In this document: in pieces, positions 5,945-59,886 of the stretch
Position numbering within the stretch: the stretch's first letter is position 1
Layout: each line of letters opens with the position of its first letter
Assembly (NCBI GenBank): GCA_001788495.1
Contig: MGCF01000006.1
Location: 2,106-66,105, forward strand
Direction: 5' to 3'
From: Candidatus Rokubacteria bacterium RIFCSPLOWO2_02_FULL_73_56
Lineage (GTDB): Bacteria; Methylomirabilota; Methylomirabilia; Rokubacteriales; CSP1-6
DNA: 64,000 bases
The notes under the pieces: generated by a model
The model's database searches: none
Told to the model about the DNA's origin: nothing
The model's input: the letters and a program-made list of their open reading frames with translations, nothing else
Program-made: the position numbers and the translations under genes

Positions 5945-6892
5945 TCAGCTCGATGGGGTCCGGGTCAGTATGCCCGGCGGCCGCGGAGCCTCGGCCGCTC
6001 GAATGGGCACGAGCTCCGCGGCGTGCCACCCGTACCTCGCCGCGTAGGCCGCGTTGAGCCCCAGGCACCGCGTCGAGCTGCACGCCTCGCGATGCACGCA
6101 CTGGTAGAAGCCGTTGCGCCGGAACTCGGTCCAGAAGGCGGGGTCGATGAACAGCCGCGGCTGCGAGTTGTCGAGCGTGTCCCCGTCCTCGCCCAGCAGG
6201 CAGTGCGGAAAATTCTTGACCATGACGCCACGGTCGAGCGCGTGGCATCTGGCGATCGCCGTCCTCAGGAAGGGGAGCACCTCGAGGTGGGATGCGCCCA
6301 GCTCCTTGACGTCCTGCTCGTTCATGGCGAAGTAGACCCAGAACTCGTGCTGGACCATCCGCCGCAGGTGTCCGAGCCGGTCGACGAGCCGGGGCAGATG
6401 CCGGTAGCTCTTCACCGTGACGACGGTGTTCGTGAGGGTCGCGACGCCCGGCAGCGCGTCCAGGTTCTCCAGGCCCCGGAGGGTCTTGTCGAACGATCCC
6501 GGCACTGTCGTGATCGCGTCGTGCGTCTCGGCGTCCGCGGCGGTGACGCTCACGAAGAACTCGTCGACTCCCGCGTCGACCAGCTCTCGGCAGTAGGCCT
6601 CGCTCGCCAGGCGCATCCCGTGCGTCTGGATCCGCACGTGCTCGAAGCCCCTCCGCCGCGCCTGTCTGGCCAGCTCCGGCAGGTCACGCCGCAGCGTGAT
6701 CTCCGCCCCGGTGAGGATCAGACCCGTCCACCGTCGGTGCGTCGCGTTGTAGTCCAGGAGCTGCTCGAACCGGCTGAGCGACTCCGGCTCCAGCCGGTCC
6801 ATGGTGTCCTCGATCATGCAGTGGACGCAGGCCAGATTGCAGCGGAACTCCAGCGTCATCGACACGTAGCGATCGTCGTCAAACCGTCCCAC
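5945..6892 (-). CDS. Radical SAM enzyme with a C-terminal auxiliary Cys cluster (SPASM/twitch-like), a putative peptide- or protein-modifying maturase.
   Basis: 'RCNLACVHCMIED' is the CX3CX2C 4Fe-4S/SAM motif at residues 18-25. The C-terminal 'HCLLGEDGD...YQCVHREACSSTRCLGLN' Cys cluster suggests a second Fe-S site. Length 315 aa. Confidence 0.75.
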   Translation of the reverse strand: MGRFDDDRYVSMTLEFRCNLACVHCMIEDTMDRLEPESLSRFEQLLDYNATHRRWTGLILTGAEITLRRDLPELARQARRRGFEHVRIQTHGMRLASEAYCRELVDAGVDEFFVSVTAADAETHDAITTVPGSFDKTLRGLENLDALPGVATLTNTVVTVKSYRHLPRLVDRLGHLRRMVQHEFWVYFAMNEQDVKELGASHLEVLPFLRTAIARCHALDRGVMVKNFPHCLLGEDGDTLDNSQPRLFIDPAFWTEFRRNGFYQCVHREACSSTRCLGLNAAYAARYGWHAAELVPIRAAEAPRPPGILTRTPSS

Positions 6893-7235
6893 GGGGCTTC
6901 CCTTCCCTCTCGGCTCGAGTCGCCGGGGACCCTGCGCCCTCGAACCGCGCCTCGTACTCCGCGACCACCCGGCCGAGCAGCACGGCGAGCCGCTTCGCGA
7001 CCGGCGGACTCAGCACGATCCGCTGGCCGAGATCGACGACGAGCTCCTGGCGGTCGGTCCGCGAGGCGCGGCTCACGCCGAACGACAGGACGAACTCCGC
7101 GTCGCTGGTCGATACGTTGCACTGGTTCGCGTGCATCCGCCTGGCGCTCGCGTCGTCCCAGCGGACCCGGGCGGCGCCCGAGCTCACGGCTTCGTCCCCG
7201 TGACCAGGAAGAACGGCGTCTCGAGGTCGATCCAC
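6879..7235 (-). CDS. DUF3467-like small protein (copy 2), 118 aa.
   Basis: 'VRWDDASARRMHANQCNVSTSDAEFVLSFGVSRASRTDRQELVVDLGQRIVLSPPVAKRLAVLLGRVVAEYEARFEG' is paralogous to copies 1, 3 and 4. It overlaps the rSAM start by 14 nt and the O-MT stop by about 50 nt. Confidence 0.6.
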   Translation of the reverse strand: MDRPRDAVLPGHGDEAVSSGAARVRWDDASARRMHANQCNVSTSDAEFVLSFGVSRASRTDRQELVVDLGQRIVLSPPVAKRLAVLLGRVVAEYEARFEGAGSPATRAEREGKPRGTV

Positions 7236-8275: not shown

Positions 8276-9134
8276 AATAGGCGCTCTTGAGGAACACCAG
8301 CCTGCCACCCTCCATACGGTAGTCGATCCCGACATCGTACAGCATGTGGCTCAGACTCGGCCGGTTCCTTTCGACGAACGACACGATCGCTTCCGGATAC
8401 GCCAGCCGCCGCAGGAAGAAGAGGAACTGATCCACGTCAATCCCGACGAAGTAGACGGCATCGTTCCGCTTCTTGTTCGCCACCACGATCACCCGGCACT
8501 TCTGCAGCTCCGGCCACAGGATCTCCTCGATCGGCACCCGCGTGGCGTCCATGTACGCGGAACACCCGGCCTTGTCCTTGATCTCCGCGAGCTGCGAGCG
8601 CGCGTCGAAGAAGAAGTAGAAGTTCTCGAGGGCGGTCCCGCGCTTCGTCAGCGAGTAGCAGATGCCCCCGGAGACCGTGCTCCCGGGCGTCCCGACATAC
8701 ATGTGGATCTCGTCCAGGGAGGCCGTCCCCGTCAGCAGCGACGGGCCCACGTCGAGCGAGAACATGAAGTACGGCAGGCGCTCGTTGACCGGGACGTCGC
8801 AGCGCACCCGAGGCCGGAGCGCCTCGGCGACTCGCGTGATGGAGCGCGTGCGCTCTCGGCGCCGATAGTCGTAGAAGTAGAGCTCCCAGCGCAGCTCGCC
8901 CCCGATCCACTTGACTCCGAAGACCGTCTTCGACACGCCGATCGCCTGCCGGAGGAGCGGCACCAGGTCGAAGCATTCCTCTCCCACCCCCGCGACCTCG
9001 AACGACCGGAACAGCAGGTTCACCGATCGAAACTTGCCGCCCGGGGGCGCGACCGGCTCGTACTCCCACAGGCAGAAGTCCTGCAGCGTCTCCCCCTCCG
9101 CCGCGTACTCGAGGCGCTCGTCGAGCGTCTTCAT
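8262..9134 (-). CDS. Hypothetical protein, 290 aa, aromatic/Lys-rich and markedly lower GC than its surroundings; distant paralogue of the C-terminal domain of the upstream gene.
   Basis: 'MKTLDERLEYAAEGETLQDFCLWEYEPV...NFYFFFDARSQLAEIKDK...FVGIDVDQFLFFLRRLAYPEAIVSFVERNRPSLSHMLYDVGIDYRMEGGRLVFLKSAYYGVF' has real-protein composition. Its ATG overlaps the upstream gene's TGA (ATGA at 9131-9134). Local GC is roughly 58% against about 72% elsewhere. Confidence 0.65.
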   Translation of the reverse strand: MKTLDERLEYAAEGETLQDFCLWEYEPVAPPGGKFRSVNLLFRSFEVAGVGEECFDLVPLLRQAIGVSKTVFGVKWIGGELRWELYFYDYRRRERTRSITRVAEALRPRVRCDVPVNERLPYFMFSLDVGPSLLTGTASLDEIHMYVGTPGSTVSGGICYSLTKRGTALENFYFFFDARSQLAEIKDKAGCSAYMDATRVPIEEILWPELQKCRVIVVANKKRNDAVYFVGIDVDQFLFFLRRLAYPEAIVSFVERNRPSLSHMLYDVGIDYRMEGGRLVFLKSAYYGVF

Positions 9135-10252
9135 TGCGCGCCGAAGTAGATGGAGAGGAAGTCCTTGCCTTCCCGGTCGAAACCGCCCGTCACGTGCCCG
9201 AAGGGCGCCGCGCTCACCTGCGCGTACGCCGCCTCGAACCGGTCCGCGGAGATCGCGTAGTGCTCGCAGATCCTGAGGAACAGGGCGTGGAGATCGCGCA
9301 GCCGCAGTCGCGCGTTGTAGAGGTTGATGTCGAACGAGTTCCGCGGGTTCCCCTCCTCGGTGGTCTCCAGGTACAGGAATCGATCGGCGGCCACCCGGCC
9401 CGCGGCCTGCAGGACGATCTCGCGCGCGAGCGCGAGCGGGGTACCGGAGGGGCCGCCCGCGAAGGCGCGGGCCATCCGCTCCAGCATGTCGTCGGTGGAG
9501 AGCCCGGGATGGCACGTGTACCGCGCGACGGAGCACCGCCGGCTGTCGTCGGCATCCCACTTGAATCCCAGGTACATGAGGAGGGGATCCCGCCGGTTCT
9601 CCGCCTTGGCCCTGACCAGTCTCCCCCCGAATTCCAGATAGGCCTTGTAGCGCTGCGTCCGCTCGCTCTCCTCGAAGCCGAAGAAGACGATGTTGGCCTG
9701 GAAGATGTTCTCGCGGAACGCCGCCACGAAGCGCTCCGGCATCCGGAGGCGCTCGCAGATCGCCAGGAGGCGCCCGCCGGCGTCCTCGCTGAGCGAATCC
9801 CGCTTGAAGCCCCACAGGAACCGGTTCGCGAGCAGGGTCCGCTCGAACATCTTGAAGGAGCGCTCGAGCACCGGCTGGACTCCGAGGTCCTCGACGAGGC
9901 GAAGCAGCTCGGCGGCCTGCTCGGGGATGCCTTCGGTGAGCGACACGGGCGACTTCCGGCTGGAGAGCGGCGCCGCCGGCGGCAGCGGCTCGCCCCCGAG
10001 CGAGCCGTGCTCCCACTCGTAGTCCCGGACGGCGTGCGCCAGCATGGCCGCGAGCCGCTTCGCGGTGGAAGGGCTCAGGACGATCCGGTCGGACACCTCG
10101 AGCACGAGCTCGTCGGTGCCGGGCACCCGGCGCCCCTTGCTCCCGAAGGACAGGGTGACCTCCGAGCGATCGGCGGACAGCTCGAACACGTTCGCGTAGC
10201 TCGTGCTCGCATTCGAGCCTTCCCAGCGCACCGGGACCCGAGCCTCAGACAT
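9131..10252 (-). CDS. DUF3467-like N-terminal domain (copy 3) fused to an unknown about 260-aa domain.
   Basis: 'MSEARVPVRWEGSNASTSYANVFELSADRSEVTLSFGSKGRRVPGTDELVLEVSDRIVLSPSTAKRLAAMLAHAVRDYEWEHGS' is DUF3467-like. The C-terminal '...FDINLYNARLRLRDLHALFLRICEHYAISADRFEAAYAQVSAAPFGHVTGGFDREGKDFLSIYFGAQ' resembles the C-terminus of the 290-aa neighbour. GGAGGG RBS 7 nt upstream; 93 nt downstream of the giant gene stop. Confidence 0.65.
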   Translation of the reverse strand: MSEARVPVRWEGSNASTSYANVFELSADRSEVTLSFGSKGRRVPGTDELVLEVSDRIVLSPSTAKRLAAMLAHAVRDYEWEHGSLGGEPLPPAAPLSSRKSPVSLTEGIPEQAAELLRLVEDLGVQPVLERSFKMFERTLLANRFLWGFKRDSLSEDAGGRLLAICERLRMPERFVAAFRENIFQANIVFFGFEESERTQRYKAYLEFGGRLVRAKAENRRDPLLMYLGFKWDADDSRRCSVARYTCHPGLSTDDMLERMARAFAGGPSGTPLALAREIVLQAAGRVAADRFLYLETTEEGNPRNSFDINLYNARLRLRDLHALFLRICEHYAISADRFEAAYAQVSAAPFGHVTGGFDREGKDFLSIYFGAQ

Positions 10253-35676: not shown

Positions 35677-35988
35677 TCAGCCCGGCAGCGCCCCGAACCG
35701 CGCCTCGTACTCCCTGAGGATGTTGGCGAGCAGCGCGGAAAGCCGCTTGGCCGCCATGGGGCTCAGAATGATCCGGTCCGTGAGCTGCACCGGGATCTCT
35801 TTCTGGGCGCTGTGCCAGGCCTGGTTGATCCCGAACAGGAGGACGACCTCCTCGCGTGTGCTCGCGACGTTGCACACGTTCGCGTAGGAGCTCGTCATGT
35901 TCGAGTCGTCCCACTTGATCTGAGGCTGGGCCTGCGCCTGCCCGGCCGGCCGCGGTGACGGGGTCTCTGCGCTCCGTTCGTTGGCCAT
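35677..35988 (-). CDS. DUF3467-like small protein (copy 4), 103 aa, near-identical core to copy 1.
   Basis: 'IKWDDSNMTSSYANVCNVASTREEVVLLFGINQAWHSAQKEIPVQLTDRIILSPMAAKRLSALLANILREYEARFGALPG'. About 85% aa and about 87% nt identity to 5577..5915 over roughly 250 bp. Confidence 0.65.
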   Translation of the reverse strand: MANERSAETPSPRPAGQAQAQPQIKWDDSNMTSSYANVCNVASTREEVVLLFGINQAWHSAQKEIPVQLTDRIILSPMAAKRLSALLANILREYEARFGALPG

Positions 35989-38322: not shown

Positions 38323-39039
38323 TCAGCCGCCGAGGTAGAGGCGCTTGACGTCGGGGTCCGCGAGCAGGGTGGCGCCGGGCCCCTCGAAGCGGTTCCGCCC
38401 GAGCTCCAGGACGTAGCCGCGGTCGGCGATCGCGAGCGCCCGCGCGGCGTTCTGCTCCACGAGCATGAGCGTGTAGCCGGCCCGCCTCATCTCGACGAGC
38501 TTGTCGAAGATGAGCGTGACGAACTTCGGCGACAGCCCGAGCGAGGGCTCGTCGAGGAGGATCAGCTTCGGCCGGACCATGAGCGCCCGCGCGATCGCGA
38601 CCATCTGCTGCTCGCCGCCCGACATCGTGCCCGCGCGCTGGTACCGGCGCTCGAGGAGGATCGGGAACAGCGCGTAGACCGCCTCCAGCGCGGCGGCGAT
38701 CTGGCGCTCGTCGCGCACGGTGTAGGCGCCCATCTCGAGGTTCTCCAGCACGGTCATCTGCGGGAACACGATCCGCCCCTGCGGCACGTAGGCGAGCCCC
38801 CGCCGGAGCACGAGGTCGGGCCGGACGCCGGTGATGTCCTCGCCGTTGAACACGACGCGCCCGCTCCGCGGCCGGAGGAAGCCGACGATCGTCTTGAAGG
38901 CGGTGGACTTGCCGGCGCCGTTCGGGCCGATGATGCTCACGATCTCGCCGGCCTGCACGTCGAGGGAGACCTCGTGCAGGATGTCCATCGTGCCGTAGCC
39001 GGCGGTGAGCGTGTGGGCCGCGAGGATCGGCGCGCTCAC
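38323..39039 (-). CDS. livF: Branched-chain amino-acid ABC transporter ATP-binding protein LivF.
   Basis: Walker A 'GPNGAGKST', signature 'MSGGEQQMVAIARAL', Walker B 'LILLDEPSLGL'. GTG start overlapping the upstream gene's TGA (GTGA at 39036-39039). Confidence 0.85.
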   Translation of the reverse strand: MSAPILAAHTLTAGYGTMDILHEVSLDVQAGEIVSIIGPNGAGKSTAFKTIVGFLRPRSGRVVFNGEDITGVRPDLVLRRGLAYVPQGRIVFPQMTVLENLEMGAYTVRDERQIAAALEAVYALFPILLERRYQRAGTMSGGEQQMVAIARALMVRPKLILLDEPSLGLSPKFVTLIFDKLVEMRRAGYTLMLVEQNAARALAIADRGYVLELGRNRFEGPGATLLADPDVKRLYLGG

Positions 39040-39689
39040 GCCGCGCTCCGCTTGGCGCAGACGTAGAGGACGTGCGGGTACGGCAGGAAGTCGCGCATCG
39101 CGTGGCGGCGGACGACGAACCCGGCGGCGCCCAGCGCGGCCGTCAGCTCCTCGGCGCTCCAGTACCTGACCGGCGTCGCGGGCGCCATCAGGCGGTCGAG
39201 GAGCCAGGTGAACCAGCGCTTCGGCGCGGGCCGGGTGTCCACGTCCTTCACGAGCAGCACGCCCTCGTCCGCGAGGCAGCGGTGGAGCTCGCGCAGGAGC
39301 GGCCCGACGTGCTCCGGCGCGACGTGGTGCACGATGTCGAGCATGTAGGCCGCGGCGACCTCGCCGTCGCCCTTGAAGTCGCGCGCGTCGCCCTGCTCGT
39401 ACGCCACGTTCTCGACCGCGAGGCGCGCGGCCGCGCGGCGCGCCAGCGCGATCCGCCGCGCGCTCAGGTCCACGCCCCGCACGAACCGCCGGGGCCCGGT
39501 CGTCGCGTAGTAGAGCGAGAACAGGCCGAAGCCGCAGCCGATGTCGAGCACGCATCCGGACTCGGGCAGGTACTGGCCGATCTCGTCGAGGAACCGCTGC
39601 CGCAGGACCCAGAAGCGTGCCCAGCAGTAGGCCCGCACGACCGGGTCGTCGTACGCGCGCACGATGCGGCGGATCGCCTCAGCGCGCAT
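39036..39689 (-). CDS. Class I SAM-dependent methyltransferase.
   Basis: Motif I 'VLDIGCGFGLFSLYYA'; 217 aa; embedded between livG/GT39 and livF with overlapping stops and starts. Confidence 0.75.
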   Translation of the reverse strand: MRAEAIRRIVRAYDDPVVRAYCWARFWVLRQRFLDEIGQYLPESGCVLDIGCGFGLFSLYYATTGPRRFVRGVDLSARRIALARRAAARLAVENVAYEQGDARDFKGDGEVAAAYMLDIVHHVAPEHVGPLLRELHRCLADEGVLLVKDVDTRPAPKRWFTWLLDRLMAPATPVRYWSAEELTAALGAAGFVVRRHAMRDFLPYPHVLYVCAKRSAA

Positions 39690-41130
39690 ACAGGAGGTAT
39701 CCGGGGCCGCGCCGGTCCAGGCGGTACGTCGAGAGCCGCAGGCGGAGGCTGCCGAACTGCTGGACGCGCGCGTAGCCGCCGCCGGGCCAGCCGTGCTCGA
39801 AGAGGACGATGAACTTGGGCGGGCGCCGGTCGAACTCCTCGGCGAAGTACGCGCGGAGCTTGTGGACGATCGGCGTGCCGGGATCGTGGTAGAAGGGGAA
39901 GTCGTAGACGAAGCGCGTCGGCTGCACGATGCGCAGCCGGAGCAGCGCGTCGATCCCGCCGTCCGTCGTGTCGAGCACCTGCACGTACTCGCCCGGGCCC
40001 ACGCGGCCGTCGAGGTCGCGGACGAGCGCGCTCACGCGCCGCTGCTTGTCCGCGATCCACGGCGCCCGGGACGCCTCCACGCCCTTGATCCCGAGCAGCG
40101 CCGTCGCGACCGCGATGCTCGCGAGGGCCACCGCCGCGGGCACCCGGCGGCGGGCGCGGAGCAGCGGCTCGACCTCGGCGAGCAGGAGGACGGCCGCGAA
40201 GGCGGCCAGCGGGTACAGGTGGTACTCCCAGCCCTTGCCCTGGACGACGAAGTGCGCGACGCCGTAGCCGAGCCCGACCGCGGCCACCGCGTGGCGCACC
40301 CCGAAGCGCCGGTGGACGCCGGCGCTCACGAGCGCCAGGGCCACGCCGACGCCGATCGGGACCCACACCTCCCAGCGCCAGGGCGTCCACCGGGCGGGAC
40401 GCCCGAGCCGCGCGTAGAGCGGCAGCAGGTACTCGAAGACGATCTCGCGCCAGGCGCCGAGCGCGCCGCGCGCCGCGACCCACACCGTCACCAGCATCGG
40501 CACGAGGAGCGCCGCCATCGCGAGGATCGCCAGCGGGATCCACGGCCGGCCGCCGCGCCGCCACGTGACGATCGCGACGACGCCCAGCAGACCCGCGACG
40601 AGCAGCGCCGCGTGCGGCTTCACCGTGAGCGCGGCGCCGAGCGCGAGCCCGCCCCAGAGCAGGCCCCACTCCACGCCGGTCTCGGCCCAGCGCGCGACGC
40701 CGAGCGCGCCGAGCAGCAGGAACGGGCTCAGGAGGAAGTCGCGCTGGCCCGCCTGCCACGCGCCGCCGGCCAGGTGGTAGGTCGCGAAGAACAGCCCCGC
40801 GCCCGCCGCCGCGACGCGCCCCCACGGCCGGGCGAGCGCCGCGACGCAGAGCGCGGTGCCCGCGAGCCAGAGGAGGTCGAAGGCGCGCCAGCCGGCGTCC
40901 GACGCGCCGAACACGCCCAGCACGACGCGGTGGAGCAGGTACACCCCGGGGAAGTTCATGTCGAAGAGGTCGCGGTACGGCGCGGCGCCCTCGCCGATCC
41001 GCCAGGCGACGTAGTGCATGATCGGCGCGTCGTGGACGAGCGGCCAGGCGCGCGAGCGCCAGGCGAGCACGGCGGCGAGCGCCGCGAGCGGCAGGAGCGC
41101 GAGCCCGCTAGCGGCCGAAATACGCTTCAA
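39679..41130 (-). CDS. Integral-membrane glycosyltransferase, ArnT/PMT (GT39/GT83)-like.
   Basis: 483 aa with about 11 predicted TM segments. N-terminal 'PLVHDAPIMHYVAWRIGEG...YRDLFDMNFPGVYLL' resembles the ArnT/PMT lipid-linked-sugar transferase family. Overlaps the livG stop by 23 nt. Confidence 0.55.
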   Translation of the reverse strand: MKRISAASGLALLPLAALAAVLAWRSRAWPLVHDAPIMHYVAWRIGEGAAPYRDLFDMNFPGVYLLHRVVLGVFGASDAGWRAFDLLWLAGTALCVAALARPWGRVAAAGAGLFFATYHLAGGAWQAGQRDFLLSPFLLLGALGVARWAETGVEWGLLWGGLALGAALTVKPHAALLVAGLLGVVAIVTWRRGGRPWIPLAILAMAALLVPMLVTVWVAARGALGAWREIVFEYLLPLYARLGRPARWTPWRWEVWVPIGVGVALALVSAGVHRRFGVRHAVAAVGLGYGVAHFVVQGKGWEYHLYPLAAFAAVLLLAEVEPLLRARRRVPAAVALASIAVATALLGIKGVEASRAPWIADKQRRVSALVRDLDGRVGPGEYVQVLDTTDGGIDALLRLRIVQPTRFVYDFPFYHDPGTPIVHKLRAYFAEEFDRRPPKFIVLFEHGWPGGGYARVQQFGSLRLRLSTYRLDRRGPGYLLYAR

Positions 41131-41815
41131 TGACCCGCTCGTCGGCCTGGATCGCGCCGGGCGGCCCCTCGGCGATCTTCTCGCCGTGGTCCAGCACGAA
41201 CACGGTCTCGCAGAGCCCCATGACGACCTTCATGTCGTGCTCGACGAGGAGCACGGTCTTGCCCCGCTCGCGCAGCTGCCGCACCGCCTCCAGCAGGTCG
41301 TTCAGCAGCGTGCGGTTGACGCCGGCAGCGGGCTCGTCGAGCAGCACCAGCGTCGGGTCGCGCATCAGCATGCGGGCGAACTCGACGAGCTTCTGCTGGC
41401 CGTAGGAGAGGTTGCCCGCGTACTCGTCCTGCAGGGCCTCGAGCCGGACGAACCGGAGCAGCTCGAGCGCGCGCGCGCGCGCTTCCTCGAGGTGGCCGCG
41501 CGTCACGACGAGGAGGTTCTCCAGCGCGGTCAGCTCGGGAAACACGCGGATGATCTGGAACGTGCGCCCGATCCCCTTGAGGGCGATGCGCCACGGCGGC
41601 AGCCCGTCGATGCGCTCGCCGTTCAGGAGGACCCGCCCGGCGTTGCGTCGCTCGAGGCCGGTGACGCAGTTGAAGAGCGTCGTCTTGCCCGAGCCGTTCG
41701 GGCCGATCAGGCCGTAGATCCGGCCGGCGGCGAGGCTGAGCGAGACGCCGTCCACGGCGGCCACGCCGCCGAAATGCTTGTGGAGCCCCTCGACCTCGAG
41801 CACGGGCGCCGGCAT
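41108..41815 (-). CDS. livG: Branched-chain amino-acid ABC transporter ATP-binding protein LivG.
   Basis: 'GLIGPNGSGKTT', 'LSYGQQKLVEFARML', 'LVLLDEPAAGV', and the C-terminal LivG-type extension. Confidence 0.85.
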   Translation of the reverse strand: MPAPVLEVEGLHKHFGGVAAVDGVSLSLAAGRIYGLIGPNGSGKTTLFNCVTGLERRNAGRVLLNGERIDGLPPWRIALKGIGRTFQIIRVFPELTALENLLVVTRGHLEEARARALELLRFVRLEALQDEYAGNLSYGQQKLVEFARMLMRDPTLVLLDEPAAGVNRTLLNDLLEAVRQLRERGKTVLLVEHDMKVVMGLCETVFVLDHGEKIAEGPPGAIQADERVIEAYFGR

Positions 41816-41993
41816 CAGATGGTCCTCGGCAGGCGATACGAGTCGGCATCATGCGGCTCCGAGTCACGAGCATCACGAGGCCCGAGGGAGGAGCCGACCG
41901 CAGCGTACGCGGTTGTACGTGAGGATCGGCGACGACCGAGAACGAAGTGAGGCGACGTGAATCGGAGCCGCATCAGATGGTCCTCGGCAGGCG
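41812..41993. repeat. Small MITE-like insertion at the livM/livG junction: 24-bp direct repeats (41812-41835 and 41970-41993) flanking about 135 bp with 18-bp terminal inverted repeats (41851-41868 and 41956-41973).
   Basis: 'GCATCAGATGGTCCTCGGCAGGCG' occurs twice, 158 bp apart. Each copy holds the overlapping livM stop and livG start (TGATG). ATGCGGCTCCGAGTCACG and CGTGAATCGGAGCCGCAT are reverse complements at 17/18. The second DR copy preserves the LivM C-terminus '...YRLPRTI*'. Confidence 0.55.
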
Positions 41994-42863
41994 GTACCGG
42001 ATCTGGAGGATCCCCAGCACCCCGCGCGGCATCAGGAGCACGACCGCGACGATGATCGCGCCGAACAGGAGCTGGTGCACGTACGGGAAGCGCGCCCACA
42101 CGAACTCCTGGGCGACGAACAGCGCCACGGCGCCGAGGACCGGGCCCCAGACCGTGCCCTTGCCGCCGAACAGGACCATGACGATCATCGTGATCGTGGT
42201 CGCCAGCGGAAACACGCTGACCGGCTCGATGTAGCCCTGGTCGCGCGCCGCGAGCGCGCCCGCGATCCCCGGTCCCACGGCCGAGAGCAGGAAGGCGTAG
42301 AGCTTGTGCCGCGCGGTGTCGATGCCCATCGCCTCGGCCGCCAGCTCGTCCTCGCGGATCGTCATGAGCCGCAGGCCGAAGCGCGAGGTGATGATCGCGT
42401 ACGTGAGCAGCGTCACGCCCCCCGCGGTCGCCGCCATCGCGTAGTAGATGGGCACGGTGGCGTGGAGCGTCGGCAGCGACAGGCCCGAGCCGCCGCCCGT
42501 GAGCCCCTCGAAGTACGAGACGAGCGCCCGCAGCACCTCGTTGAGGCCGAGCATCGCGATGGCGAAGTACGGGCCCTTGAGGCGCAGGCACGGGTAGCCG
42601 ATCACCAGCGCGACGGCGCACGCGCCGACGCCGCCCGCGAGCGCGGCGGCGAGCCAGGGCCAGTCGGCCTTGGCGACGAGGATCGCCCCGGTGTAGGCGC
42701 CGGCGCCGAAGAACGCCACGTGGCCGAAGGACACGTAGCCGGTGAGCCCCGAGATCAGGTTCCAGGAGCCCGCGAGCGCGATCCACATGAAGATCTGGAG
42801 CATCGCGCGCACGCCGTAGCCGGTCCCGAGCGCCGGGTAGACGGCGAGCGCCGCCAGGAGCAC
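41973..42863 (-). CDS. livM: Branched-chain amino-acid ABC transporter permease LivM.
   Basis: Hydrophobic multi-TM sequence with the LivM family conserved region 'GYVSFGHVAFFGAGAY'. GTG start. Confidence 0.8.
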   Translation of the reverse strand: MLLAALAVYPALGTGYGVRAMLQIFMWIALAGSWNLISGLTGYVSFGHVAFFGAGAYTGAILVAKADWPWLAAALAGGVGACAVALVIGYPCLRLKGPYFAIAMLGLNEVLRALVSYFEGLTGGGSGLSLPTLHATVPIYYAMAATAGGVTLLTYAIITSRFGLRLMTIREDELAAEAMGIDTARHKLYAFLLSAVGPGIAGALAARDQGYIEPVSVFPLATTITMIVMVLFGGKGTVWGPVLGAVALFVAQEFVWARFPYVHQLLFGAIIVAVVLLMPRGVLGILQIRYRLPRTI

Positions 42864-58030: not shown

Positions 58031-59161
58031 ATGCTGCCGCTCGAGGGGATCAAGGTGGTCGAGATCGCGCAGAACCTCGCGGGCCCCTACGCCGGGGAGA
58101 TCCTGGCGGCGCTCGGGGCCGACGTGGTCAAGGTGGAGCGCCCGGAGGGCGGCGACGACGCGCGCGGCTGGGGTCCGCCGTTCTGGCGGGGCACCTCGCC
58201 CGCGTTCCTCACGATGAACAGCGACAAGCGCTCGATCACCCTCGACCTCAAGGACCCCGCGGCGGTCGCCTGGCTCACGGCCTACCTCGGCGACGCCGAC
58301 GTCCTCGTGCAGAACCTGCGGCCGGGCGTCCTCGAGGCGTTCGGGCTCGGCCCCGAGGCGCTGCTGGCGAAGTATCCGCGCCTCGTCTACTGCTCGCTCT
58401 GGGCGTTCGGCCGGACGGGGCCGCTGCGCCTCAGACCCGGCTACGAGCCGATGGTCCAGGCGTTCGCCGGGCTCATGACCGTGAACGGCGACGAGGGCGG
58501 GCCGCCGACGCGGATCGGCACCTCGATCCTCGACTACGGCACCGGGATGTGGACGGCGATCGGGACGCTCGCGGCGCTGGTGCGCCGCCAGCAGACGGGG
58601 CGTGGCGGCGTCGTGGACGCCTCGCTGTTCGAGACCGCGCTCGCGTGGCTCACCGGCCACTACACCGCGTACCGGATCACCGGCGAGCTGCCCGTCCCCC
58701 ACCGCAGCGGCAGCCGGCGGCTGGTGGTCTTCCAGGCCTTCGAGGCGAAGGACGGCCCGGTCATCGTCGCCGCCGGCAACGACCGGCTCTTCGCCAAGCT
58801 CGCCGAGGCGCTCGGCCGGCCCGACTGGGCGCAGGACGCGCGCTTCGCGACGAACGCCGCGCGGGTGACGAACCGCGCGGCGCTGATCCCCGAGATCGAG
58901 GCGATCGTGCGCACCCGCACGAAGGCGGAGTGGCTCGAGCGCCTGGAGCAGGCCGGGGTGCCGTGCGCGCCGATCCAGAACCTCGCCGAGGTGCTGGCCG
59001 AGCCGCAGACCGGGGCGACGGGGATGCTCCAGCCCGTGCCCGAGCTCGGGCTCGAGCTGCTGGGGCTGCCGCTGTCCTTCGACGGCGAGCGGCCGCCGAT
59101 CCGGCGCCGGGCGCCGCACCTCGGCGAGCACAACGGCGAGATCCTCGGCGAGCGCGGCTGA
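58031..59161 (+). CDS. CoA-transferase family III (CaiB/BaiF) protein.
   Basis: 'MLPLEGIKVVEIAQNLAGPYAGEILAALGADVVKVERPEGGDDAR...' is a canonical family III N-terminus; 376 aa. Confidence 0.85.
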   Translation: MLPLEGIKVVEIAQNLAGPYAGEILAALGADVVKVERPEGGDDARGWGPPFWRGTSPAFLTMNSDKRSITLDLKDPAAVAWLTAYLGDADVLVQNLRPGVLEAFGLGPEALLAKYPRLVYCSLWAFGRTGPLRLRPGYEPMVQAFAGLMTVNGDEGGPPTRIGTSILDYGTGMWTAIGTLAALVRRQQTGRGGVVDASLFETALAWLTGHYTAYRITGELPVPHRSGSRRLVVFQAFEAKDGPVIVAAGNDRLFAKLAEALGRPDWAQDARFATNAARVTNRAALIPEIEAIVRTRTKAEWLERLEQAGVPCAPIQNLAEVLAEPQTGATGMLQPVPELGLELLGLPLSFDGERPPIRRRAPHLGEHNGEILGERG

Positions 59162-59385
59162 GCGCCCGCCCTAGCGCGCATTATTCACGAACGGTCAGCG
59201 CGCGAGCCGGGCAGGGCCTGTCGCAGGGTGCGGTCCTCGCGGGGCCGGCGCCGTCACCCATTCGCCCGAACGCCGCGCTGCGCGCGGCGGACGGGACGAA
59301 GGGGGCCCACAGCGCGCGGCCCCGCGAGGGCCGCACCCTGCGCCACCCGCCCGGTCGTGCCAGCGCCGTTCGCGAATAACGCGCG

Positions 59386-59886
59386 CTAGCGCGCCGACGC
59401 GCTCGAGAGCGCGACGACCGCGTCGCCGGCGCGCAGCGTGGCGTCCCAGCCGATCGCGATCGCGCCCTTGACGCTCTCGTGGGCGGGGCAGCCCTGCGGG
59501 TGCACGGCGAGCGCGCGCTCGGCGGCCTCGCGCGCCTCCGCCGGCACGCTGAGATCGTAGTGGACCTGGATCGACGCGATGCGGATCGTCGTGCCCGTGC
59601 CGACGATGCGCCCGTCCACCGTCGCCGTGTACGCGCTCCGGTCGAACGTGATCTTGCGCCCTGCCAGGGCGCCGGCCAGCGTGCCGTACATTCAGCCGGC
59701 CACCGCCGCCACGATGTGATCGAGCGTCGAGGCCACCGGCGGGCCCGCCTTGACGCCGTAGTACGCGCGGAGCGCGCCCTGCACGCCGTAGACGACCGGC
59801 TCCGGGACCTCGCCCAGCCACGCGTTGCGGAAGCCGCCGCGGTACTCGAGGCGGGCGTGCGAGACGTACTCGAACTCCTGGCTCAT
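59386..59886 (-). CDS. OsmC/Ohr-family peroxiredoxin-like protein with an in-frame TGA (59692-59694) at the catalytic Cys position: candidate selenoprotein (Sec-OsmC), alternatively a pseudogene.
   Basis: The two listed ORFs (59692.. and 59386..59691) are one reading frame: 'MSQEFEYVSH...STLDHIVAAVAG-TGA-MYGTLAGALAGRKITFDRSAYTATVDGRI...AVHPQGCPAHESVKGAIAI'. This aligns with OsmC 'AAHAACFSMAL', putting the TGA exactly where the peroxidatic Cys sits. A second conserved Cys ('GCPAHES') is present. Strong GAGGAGGAGGAGG RBS before the ATG at 59886. Confidence 0.55.

Follow-up and report, generated by a model that had tools for sequence, protein, structure and literature searches.

A hairpin-forming repeat has been inserted where the stop codon of a livM-type gene and the start codon of livG share a single base in a Candidatus Rokubacteria (Methylomirabilota) genome. 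By comparison with orthologous operons, the 158 bp found at this junction are a lineage-specific insertion into a 1-nt stop/start overlap, and alignment with copies from elsewhere makes the hairpin a member of a dispersed family of repeats, the 67-nt core of which is nearly invariant. The reading that we favour, and hold to be probable, is that of a dispersed hairpin insertion of the REP, ERIC or Rickettsia palindromic element (RPE) kind, which is tolerated at the livM-livG junction by way of a putative translational relay. The features lie within a 64-kb stretch of DNA that was analysed as a whole, hereafter the window, and are as follows:

41973-42863, minus strand: livM-type branched-chain amino acid ABC permease gene (ORF and translation), 296 aa, the protein ending ...RYRLPRTI*, with the stop codon TGA at 41973-41975

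41970-41997, minus strand: upstream copy of the direct repeat, 28 nt, GTACCGCCTGCCGAGGACCATCTGATGC, comprising the last 24 nt of livM, with the stop TGA sharing one base with an ATG, and the next C

41851-41973, minus strand: imperfect palindrome (hairpin), 123 nt, one copy of the dispersed repeat family, with basal arms at 41956-41973 and 41851-41868

41878-41944, minus strand: nearly invariant core, 67 nt, CGTTCTCGGTCGTCGCCGATCCTCACGTACAACCGCGTACGCTGCGGTCGGCTCCTCCCTCGGGCCT, from alignments A4 and A6 of copies from different loci

41840-41850, minus strand: tail between the hairpin and the downstream repeat, 11 nt, GATGCCGACTC

41812-41839, minus strand: downstream copy of the direct repeat, 28 nt, GTATCGCCTGCCGAGGACCATCTGATGC, which provides a Shine-Dalgarno (SD) sequence, the stop of the bridging ORF and the livG ATG

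41815-41973, minus strand: bridging small ORF (sORF), 52 codons plus stop (MRLRFTSPHFVLGRRRSSRTTAYAAVGSSLGPRDARDSEPHDADSYRLPRTI*), its ATG overlapping the livM stop and its TGA overlapping the livG ATG

41108-41815, minus strand: livG-type ABC ATPase gene (ORF; Pfam ABC_tran and BCA_ABC_TP_C), 235 aa

The insert is bracketed by a direct repeat of 28 nt (27/28 identical, 24 nt of it exact) at 41812-41839 and 41970-41997, with a start-to-start spacing of 158, which BLAST of the region against the window recovers at an E value of about 1e-5 to 4e-8. The upstream copy includes the SD-like GAGGA and matches the uninterrupted livM-livG junction of relatives. TGATG is present in both copies; this doubling of the junction within repeats had been noticed in the initial annotation, as had direct repeats of 24 bp lying 158 bp apart, which are the exact part of the longer repeat with its one mismatch. 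The same annotation placed an element of about 135 bp between the repeats: an element is there, but its size is to be corrected, as the DNA that is new relative to the empty sites of relatives amounts to 130 nt (41840-41969) between the repeat copies. The 158 bp separating the two TGATG motifs are made up of the 123-nt hairpin, the 11-nt tail and 24-28 nt of target sequence that occurs here a second time. At the base of the hairpin, 18-nt inverted repeats at 41851-41868 and 41956-41973 are complementary at 17 of 18 positions, just as had been described, and the long hairpin predicted from them is borne out by RNA folding: 41851-41973 has a minimum free energy of -63.6 kcal/mol against a shuffle mean of -44.6 (z = -5.2), with 0 of 200 shuffles equally stable. 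The tail together with the preceding T reads TGATGCCGAC and is similar to the livG start, TGATGCCGGC. The insert is no artefact of assembly, since 11 independently assembled metagenome contigs contain it, all with an identical sequence but for a single SNP in one of them.

Four related Rokubacteria lineages, with livM 89-95% identical, have an intact TGATG overlap and no insert; in operons L148-L154 the livM end and the livG start lie at the same base, and alignment A2 of the junctions has a clean 158-nt gap opposite the window insert. Since the orthologous operons compared have an empty TGATG site, the extra DNA is an insertion that duplicated the livM stop/livG start junction, and here the initial annotation was right. 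The downstream repeat has the window lineage's synonymous variant ACC, which is absent from L148, L149 and L152 and common to L154. That the spacer is simply old, or arose without foreign DNA from neighbouring sequence that was duplicated or folded back, can be argued from the 28-nt repeat, which is local sequence. We give this reading practically no chance, and it is refuted by the empty sites in relatives, by the presence of the same sequence at unrelated loci and by comparison of the 130-nt insert with 400 nt of each flank, where similarity is not above shuffled controls; with alignment scores inside the range of those controls, derivation from flanking DNA by tandem duplication or fold-back was rejected.

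Pfam BPD_transp_2 was found on a protein identical to the window's livM-type permease, the YRLPRTI C-terminus of which is essentially kept in 119 of the 120 best homologues, with minor variants such as YHLPRTV and YRLPRAI; P0038 has five additional residues beyond a livM C-terminus of the YRLPRTI type. No promoter or terminator motifs were found around the insert. A terminator scan of 41600-42200 gave 0 sites, and with GATGCCGACTCG following the hairpin there is no intrinsic terminator or attenuator, that is, no GC-rich stem with a U tract. A Pfam search of 32 ORFs and of the first 1000 aa of a 7,979-aa ORF found no transposase, integrase or reverse transcriptase in the window.

Copies of the hairpin were found at other junctions. 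The livM-livG junction of another lineage (L206/L165) has the same hairpin, in a 185-nt region, flanks included, that is 84% identical to the window, and L164, L166, L170, L171, L181 and L185 have a half-deleted form of the liv-junction hairpin; this variant without the entire 3' half persists in strains with livM 98.8-99.8% identical. Further copies lie upstream of rplC in L209, between leuB and asd in L210-L213, and in contigs L214, L215 and L216, the last of which comes from the same sample as one contig of the window organism. Family copies occupy at least six distinct loci across metagenomes, are co-oriented with the flanking genes wherever these are readable, and usually lie 0-5 nt past the stop codon of the upstream gene. 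The hairpin core is translated in about 30 different soil-metagenome protein fragments, and phmmer and word searches with translations of the element matched 9 + 37 predicted proteins with many different flanks; many of the family matches are Plass protein-level assemblies (SRC), in which chimeras are possible, and most contexts outside the window were found via called ORFs, which biases them toward open frames. The initial annotation had suggested a small non-autonomous mobile element, and with a dispersed repeat family that has copies at other loci this is presumably what the insert is.

In the window itself the hairpin is the sole real match of the covariance model R1, at 148.5 bits; neither BLAST nor this model found a second copy there, and about 1.4 Mb of other retrieved contigs contained no further copies. 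Early scans of viral, genome and metagenome collections used the 16-18-nt basal arm as query, which is unsuitable because the arms are the variable part of the element: the viral collection gave 15 chance matches, the genome collection gave single-arm chance matches among the matches listed, and a two-arm pattern scan gave no matches, although the pattern matches the window itself. A scan with the basal 18-mer recovered the second liv lineage; all its other matches were gene starts that encode MRLR.T signal peptides. Viral scans with two conserved core blocks gave 0 matches, a protein search by word index, based on the alignment in the sORF frame, yielded no more than 13 candidates and 2 matches, and the one weak 39-nt match in blastn of a plasmid collection (E 0.5) was dismissed. 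The best Rfam matches overlapping the element in the window reach 15-19 bits against thresholds of 34.5-35, so that no family attains its gathering threshold, and Rfam gave nothing on the element in the copies of L213-L216. Our literature search found no paper matching the repeat family, including on Rokubacteria repeats, and the family appears to be undescribed so far.

Across loci, the core interior is almost invariant, and the basal stem varies in sequence yet remains paired: the outer 8-17 nt of the inverted repeats differ among loci (ATGCGGCTCCGATTCACG, GTGCCGCACCGATATGCG, GCGCCGTGCCGATAACCG, TGCCGCGCCAACTTGC) around an invariant interior. The consensus structure has 41 pairs with 95.6% of cells paired, against 32-41% in slid controls, and 11 of the consensus pairs have double compensatory changes, which 0 of 500 shuffles reach. 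When translated, the core gives matches that are 90-97% identical in five reading frames. Between the window and L206 the hairpin is 92.7% identical, compared with 84.5% for the flanking livM and 83.7% for livG. In five of six copies it is the antisense strand that folds better, by 4-10 kcal/mol; folding energy is therefore no evidence of strand, and the suggestion that the sense RNA is the stabler strand by virtue of conserved G-U pairs was rejected. A flanking duplication is clear only in the window, where it is 28 nt long; those of L206 (about 11 nt and degenerate, p about 0.05) and L216 (8 nt) are marginal, and none is significant in L214 and L215.

How the insertion may be tolerated is suggested by its reading frames. 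The ATG of the first TGATG, which forms the first three bases of the hairpin stem, starts an ORF of 52 codons that stops at the second TGATG. In L206 the bridging sORF agrees in frame and in length, even though 16/36 positions of the tail region differ, and in the L181 variant exactly 78 nt (26 codons) have been lost in frame, so that a 26-codon sORF still ends on TGATG. At the other loci, the equivalent frame ends on the TGATG of rplC in L209 and on a TAG with the asd ATG immediately next in L211 and L212, and L213 stops at that TAG; in L216, a GTG 4 nt past the upstream stop opens an ORF that ends 3 nt ahead of the next ATG. A PDZ protein in L214 reads in frame through the element, before its signal peptide, the element in L215 is in frame with the downstream protein and readable from an ATG inside the element, and the database fragments P0156 (LivK-like) and P0159 (a flavoprotein) are apparently in frame with it in the same manner. 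A point against the relay is that about 15% of insertions of this sort would have such an ORF by chance alone, calculated as 1/3 for the frame times 0.45 for the absence of a stop.

In published experiments, termination-reinitiation proved to depend on genes that overlap or are very closely spaced, the final 15 nt of the upstream gene being sufficient (PMC10666635). The duplicated 28 nt re-creates the livG SD and overlap context, and the bridging sORF could pass ribosomes from livM to livG. The earlier proposal that the insert uncouples livG from livM is unsupported, as the 52-codon ORF links the two TGATG motifs and its frame is kept in two diverged variants. We envisage that the element entered probably at a staggered break, with duplication of the target. 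Ribosomes finishing livM at its TGA would restart on the overlapping ATG by means of the original livG SD, translate through the hairpin for 52 codons, melting it, and terminate at the second TGATG; because this lies within a duplicate of the last 24 nt of livM, it would be a full termination-reinitiation module for livG, and the duplicated SD would also allow independent initiation on livG. The insertion would then be tolerated because translation can be relayed, and an effect of the hairpin on how the mRNA is processed, or on its stability, may come on top. The usual view of palindromic repeats is that of clutter between genes by which operons are broken up; this insertion lies on the operon's most sensitive point, a 1-nt overlap between subunits of one transporter, yet appears to leave a complete path for ribosome hand-over, a path that has outlasted both 16% divergence in sequence and the loss of 78 nt. 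A relay, if real, would show how genes under tight coupling can absorb selfish DNA, and the junction would lend itself naturally to the study of termination-reinitiation where a very stable hairpin intervenes. That the 67-nt core is nearly invariant suggests a specific partner, protein or RNA, in an uncultured, poorly understood phylum, and model R1 can be used for a census of the repeat family.

Several other explanations have to be weighed against a mobile hairpin with a relay. The SD, ATG and open frame are kept in relatives and the motif SPxFVLGRRRSSRTTAYAPVGSSLGPR recurs in database proteins, which might suggest that the 52-codon ORF encodes a genuine small protein and that the hairpin is incidental; this is extremely improbable, for 15 of the codon differences are nonsynonymous and 3 synonymous, with changes distributed 9/11/5 over the codon positions, the C-terminal third is unrelated between lineages, and a deletion of 26 codons is tolerated. 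The element DNA is, moreover, translated in all other frames with equal conservation, so its conservation is at the nucleotide level; the sORF peptide is not conserved and, we infer, not functional in its own right. A different history for the insert, in which the window and L206 lineages inherited it from a shared ancestor and it was precisely lost several times by slippage between the repeats, instead of arriving recently or independently in the window lineage, is a real possibility, if not the one we expect. The two copies lie at the same nucleotide in the same orientation and have the same arms, which differ at every other locus, and the 84% identity of the 185-nt region equals that of the flanking genes; a hairpin bracketed by 28-nt repeats is also a good substrate for precise deletion. 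Against a single old event, the repeats of the window differ at 1 of 28 positions and the downstream copy in L206 is barely recognisable, an asymmetry that would not be expected; the closest relatives of the window (livM 90.5, 90.5 and 88.5% identical in nucleotides) are all empty, and the filled L206 lineage is the most distant (84.5%); and by a count made by eye, the tail of each lineage is slightly nearer to its own livG start than to the other's.

The hairpin might also owe its presence mainly to selection by the host for a structured RNA, for instance a processing site of RNase III or RNase E, or a stabiliser of the mRNA, through which genes within an operon are expressed to different levels; it would be kept locus by locus, with mobility as its mode of spread. 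There is precedent in the RNase processing documented at the palindromic repeats of Correia and ERIC elements (PMC10969869), and this view would account for a core conserved above the flanking coding DNA (92.7% vs about 84%), a stem with compensatory covariation and co-orientation with genes in all copies with readable flanks; 5/5 matches fused to real Pfam domains are in sense frames, against 0 of roughly 14 antisense-frame contexts. We nevertheless consider it unlikely: close relatives function without a hairpin at the same junction, the variant lacking the 3' half persists in near-identical strains, no Rfam family matches, the antisense strand folds at least as well, and a palindrome would be expected to covary just as much if it acted as a DNA hairpin or as a pair of ends bound by protein. 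The initial annotation's comparison with a MITE fits only loosely: it holds for the dispersal and for the inverted and direct repeats, and fails for conserved ends and a fixed duplication. A classical MITE, an internally deleted IS moved in trans with conserved terminal inverted repeats and a fixed-length duplication, would be small and non-coding, with inverted and direct repeats, as is the element at livM-livG, and dispersed over several loci. It is quite improbable here, since conservation is lowest in the outermost arms and highest in the interior, opposite to what a MITE would show, the duplications range from 28 nt to undetectable, and an 11-nt tail parts the right arm from the window repeat; no parent IS or transposase was found in the 64-kb window or in the other retrieved loci. 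We infer instead a non-autonomous mobile element of the REP, ERIC or RPE kind.

Among the known classes, RPEs are dispersed palindromes, about 100-150 bp in length, which do not stand in the way of translation and are found in frame with genes of the host (PMC10969869). The family described here is likewise palindromic, dispersed and readable in frame with host proteins (the DNA of L214 and L215; the fragments P0156 and P0159). RPEs belong to an unrelated host group, have no sequence relation that we found, and lie inside coding regions, whereas the window copy lies where a stop and a start codon overlap and forms a bridging ORF of its own, not a fusion. We know of no RPE reported with a long target duplication. 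The proteobacterial ERIC/IRU, REP/BIME and Correia elements are palindromic intergenic repeats, transcribed and often found right after stop codons, whose mRNA hairpins can serve as targets of RNase or as stabilisers (PMC10969869). Like the window element they are imperfect palindromes, with a comparable size of about 35-200 bp; no sequence or Rfam relation to it was found. Correia elements have conserved terminal inverted repeats and a fixed target duplication (TA), and REPs are units of about 35 nt linked to RAYT transposases, whereas the window element has a conserved core, variable ends and a 28-nt target duplication; relative to REP/REPIN, which has two conserved inverted REP units of about 20-40 nt around a variable spacer and a RAYT (Y1 transposase) gene in the genome, the pattern is opposite, with the core and apex conserved and the base variable, and there is no Y1 transposase in the window.

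Mycobacterial interspersed repetitive units (MIRUs), described by Supply et al. in 1997, are reportedly intercistronic, with small ORFs that overlap the flanking start and stop codons. The same is seen in the window, where TGATG stands at both ends of the 52-codon ORF, and likewise in L206 and L181. MIRUs, from Mycobacterium, are tandem direct repeats of about 46-101 bp, variable in number and not hairpins, whereas the window has a single 123-nt palindrome and no tandem array. Integron attC sites are imperfect palindromes of about 60-140 nt between co-oriented genes, with structure kept above sequence, a variable apex and unpaired stem bases, but they have conserved ends and a variable interior, the reverse of the window element. 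The attC core sites RYYYAAC ... GTTRRRY are absent, the element ending in ATGCGGC... and ...GCCGCAT with no GTTRRRY; the neighbours are housekeeping genes and not cassettes, and the window has no integrase.

A bolder version of the mobile-hairpin reading is that the family is specialised for operon stop/start overlaps, installs its own relay and is mobilised via transcribed RNA or a single-stranded hairpin, which would be new in bacteria. We rate this as rather unlikely. On this view the elements would stay open in two sense frames and the duplicated target would restore a stop/start overlap for the downstream gene, so that the element brings a relay with it, and a transcribed RNA or single-stranded hairpin intermediate would fit the variable duplications, the short flank-like stretch past the hairpin, the co-orientation in all copies with readable flanks and the conserved core with a free basal stem. 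At the start of most copies the upstream stop is overlapped by an ATG or GTG, as TGATG in the window and L206 and as TAGTG in L213 and L215.

An insertion interrupts the livM-livG junction and has duplicated the livM stop and livG start, as the initial annotation proposed. In the operons of four livM homologues (identity of about 95, 92, 92 and 89% across 284 aligned residues) the end of livM and the start of livG share one base in seven contigs; their junction runs uninterrupted as ...GTACCGCCTGCCGAGGACGATCTGATGCCGGCGCCC..., and the window aligned against it shows a clean gap of 158 nt. The parts of the junction, with the repeats located by repeat search, are:

41973-42863, minus strand: livM-type permease (296 aa; Pfam BPD_transp_2), C-terminus ...RYRLPRTI followed by the stop
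41108-41815, minus strand: livG-type ATPase downstream of livM (235 aa; Pfam ABC_tran and BCA_ABC_TP_C)
41812-41839 and 41970-41997: direct repeat of 28 nt with one mismatch, spacing 158
41851-41868 and 41956-41973: inverted repeat of 18 nt, 17/18 complementary

Both 28-nt copies end, in the sense direction, in TGATGC, a TGA stop overlapping an ATG. The junction has gained 130 nt of new DNA (41840-41969) and, in duplicate, 28 nt of target; the 158-bp spacing and the 18-bp inverted repeats (17/18) reported earlier hold, while the direct repeats are 28 nt with one mismatch rather than 24 bp, and the element of about 135 bp comes to 130 nt of truly new sequence. Close homologues of the livM protein are numerous and carry the label Candidatus Rokubacteria or Methylomirabilota, and YRLPRTI is essentially kept, with minor variants, at the C-terminus of 119 of the 120 best, so the upstream repeat copy is the ancestral livM end. 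Alignment of the 130-nt insert to 400 nt of either flank gave no similarity beyond shuffled controls, which marks it as foreign DNA and rules out local duplication as its origin. Because the same insert sequence recurs in 11 independently assembled metagenome contigs from aquifer samples, with a lone SNP in one of them, the feature is real and not an assembly artefact. No promoter or terminator motifs were found in the junction region, nor a mobilising gene in the 64-kb window.

The long hairpin that had been foreseen is borne out by folding: 41851-41973 (123 nt) forms a single imperfect hairpin at -63.6 kcal/mol against a shuffled mean of -44.6 (z = -5.2). Folding is slightly more favourable for the antisense than for the sense strand, and the energies are therefore no evidence for an RNA role. 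An 11-nt tail follows the hairpin and, together with the preceding base (TGATGCCGAC), is similar to the livG start (TGATGCCGGC); in L206, a contig of a second Rokubacteria lineage, the tail too resembles that contig's own livG start. Another description of the arrangement is thus a junction duplication of about 34 nt with the hairpin inside the first copy, a structure which a simple staggered-cut model does not predict.

A search with the 18-nt arm showed this hairpin to be present between livM and livG in that second lineage too (L206 and L165, 84% match to the window over 185 nt), the useful result of collection scans in which basal arms otherwise carry little information. A variant shorter by exactly 78 nt, without the hairpin's 3' half and most of the tail, occupies the junction in L164, L166, L170, L171, L181 and L185 and coexists with the full form, the strains being 98.5-99.8% identical in livM. 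Further matches to the arm, ATGCGGCTCCGANTCACG, lie in numerous unrelated gene starts that encode signal peptides with the N-terminus MRLR[LFIV]T (L161, L163, L167, L174, L184, L187, L188, L194 and others); these account for most collection matches and are not copies of the element. With phmmer, the 52-aa translation of the small ORF crossing the element had nine hits among 1.84 billion representatives, with SPxFVLGRRRSSRTTAYAPVGSSLGPRxAR set within unrelated sequences, and the remaining five reading frames, combined into one query, added 37 (roughly 25 distinct flanks), many of them 90-97% identical over 27-29 residues. Most of these protein hits are SRC entries, that is, Plass protein-level assemblies of soil reads, which come without DNA and are possibly chimeric. 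Contig DNA places copies at the following loci:

L209: upstream of rplC
L210-L213: between leuB and asd
L214: before a PDZ protein
L215: after a tiny ORF, on a lower-GC contig
L216: between two co-directional genes; its sample also yielded a contig of the window organism

A covariance model built from the copies (CM R1) counts one in the window (148.5 bits, next best 18 bits), and about 1.4 Mb of other fetched contigs held none beyond the liv, rplC and leuB-asd copies. Two database fragments, P0121 and P0124, look like copies with other arms at further TGATG junctions of the livM type. At the leuB-asd locus, L211 (1364-1598) and L212 (1140-1373) differ from L213 (638-806) in that about 35 nt of the element's left half gives way to different DNA, about 100 nt long and with small GC-rich hairpins of its own, perhaps a nested insertion; in L210 this stretch is a run of N.

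Across family alignments a 67-nt core, CGTTCTCGGTCGTCGCCGATCCTCACGTACAACCGCGTACGCT[G/C]CGGTCGGCTCCTCCCTCGGGCCT, is almost invariant, and the basal stem around it is locus-specific in sequence with complementarity retained. RNAalifold gave 41 pairs, with standard pairs in 95.6% of sequence-by-pair cells and two-sided changes at 11 consensus pairs; none of 500 shuffles reached the family's pairing values, and with the partner shifted by 1-3 columns pairing fell to 32-41%. Four copies have a T-C mismatch within CCGAT/CTCGG, the apex contains extra DNA in L213 and L211/L212, and the length of the flanking duplication varies among loci. The hairpins of the window and L206 have 9 differences in 123 nt (92.7% identity), compared with 84.5% and 83.7% for the flanking genes; the element is thus either under constraint or younger than the split of the two lineages.

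We class the element as a palindromic dispersed repeat tolerated inside operons. In size and position it is like ERIC, REP and Correia elements. Closest in functional arrangement are the mycobacterial MIRUs, reportedly intercistronic repeats whose small ORFs overlap the stop and start of their neighbours; overlapping small ORFs are a feature of both. Close in function as well are the palindromic elements of Rickettsia, palindromic repeats that are in frame with the host genes they are read with (PMC10969869). The description as MITE-like was right in that the element is small, repeated and hairpin-forming, but the label is approximate only, since variable ends around a nearly invariant core reverse the pattern of TIR-type MITEs, and of REPINs. 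The element does not pass as a TIR-type MITE, as an attC site or as an intrinsic terminator by their defining tests, and no Rfam family matches it; a literature search yielded no paper on repeats in this phylum. A second, unrelated palindrome of about 220 nt lies at 59165-59395 (plus strand), between the stop of a CoA-transferase gene (58031-59161, plus) and an opposite-strand ORF without Pfam match (59386-59691). It is a near-perfect hairpin (-187 kcal/mol, z = -11) with the ends CTAGCGCGCATTATTCACGAACGG ... CCGTTCGCGAATAACGCGCGCTAG and looks like a separate MITE-like repeat.

As to the history of the locus, the 28-nt repeats of the window differ at one position, the downstream copy having the window lineage's own ACC codon (absent in L148, L149 and L152, common to the more distant L154), while the downstream copy in L206 is barely recognisable (11 nt, p ~0.05). 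The nearest livM relatives of the window (90.5, 90.5 and 88.5% nucleotide identity) are empty, and L206, whose junction is filled, stands farthest off (84.5%). Together these observations favour two independent events, a recent insertion in the window lineage and an older one in that of L206. The arms common to window and L206 speak for the alternative, a single old insertion in their shared ancestry followed by several precise losses. If the two insertions were independent, as we favour, the junction would be a preferred target. For livM, L148 and L149 are clearly the lineages nearest to the window (90.5% nucleotide identity), with livG about equidistant from L148, L149, L152 and L206 (83.7-85.7%); these differing patterns hint at a possible recombination breakpoint at or near the insert-bearing junction.

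The earlier proposal that the insertion uncouples livG translation from livM is probably wrong. The ATG of the upstream TGATG opens a frame of 52 codons through the hairpin, and its stop is the TGA of the downstream TGATG at which livG starts; as GAGGA, seven bases before the ATG, lies within the duplicated 28 nt, small ORF and livG both have the native livG ribosome-binding context. The L206 frame also has exactly 52 codons and a TGATG end despite 16 differences in its last 36 nt, and the 78-nt deletion leaves a 26-codon bridging ORF with frame and TGATG end kept. Codon differences between window and L206 are 15 nonsynonymous and 3 synonymous (changes 9/11/5 by codon position); conservation does not lie in the peptide. 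Elsewhere the frame terminates at the TGATG of rplC (L209) or at a TAG immediately next to the asd ATG (L211 and L212; the L213 contig ends at that TAG), is in frame with the downstream protein (L214 and L215), or is opened by a GTG four bases past the upstream stop and ends three bases ahead of the next ATG (L216). Most copies open on an ATG or GTG that overlaps the stop of the gene before it, as TGATG in the window and in L206 and as TAGTG in L213 and L215. Such a relay frame is expected by chance in about 15% of insertions, and most other loci were found via called ORFs, with a bias to open frames from which the window, L206 and L216 are free. In reporter work, termination-reinitiation collapses at a gap of about 20 nt, and 15 nt from the end of the upstream gene suffice for it (PMC10666635); the duplicated livM end before livG provides such a stretch.

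Elsewhere in the window, 10346-34285 (minus) is a single ORF of 7,979 codons, almost certainly a real giant gene because its GC3 is 0.97; its first 1000 residues had no Pfam match at E<=1e-5, and three DUF3467 genes surround it (6879-7235, 9131-10252 and 35677-35988). At 38323-41130 (minus), livG is followed by a glycosyltransferase-like gene of the PMT_2 type (483 aa), which shares 23 nt with the livG 3' end, and by a methyltransferase gene (217 aa), ahead of a second ABC ATPase in the livF position (ABC_tran; 238 aa as called in metagenome loci). The PMT_2-like gene, about 483-487 aa and overlapping the livG end, is kept in three of the four related lineages examined; the fourth (L154) has a 483-aa gene without a Pfam hit about 150 nt after livG.
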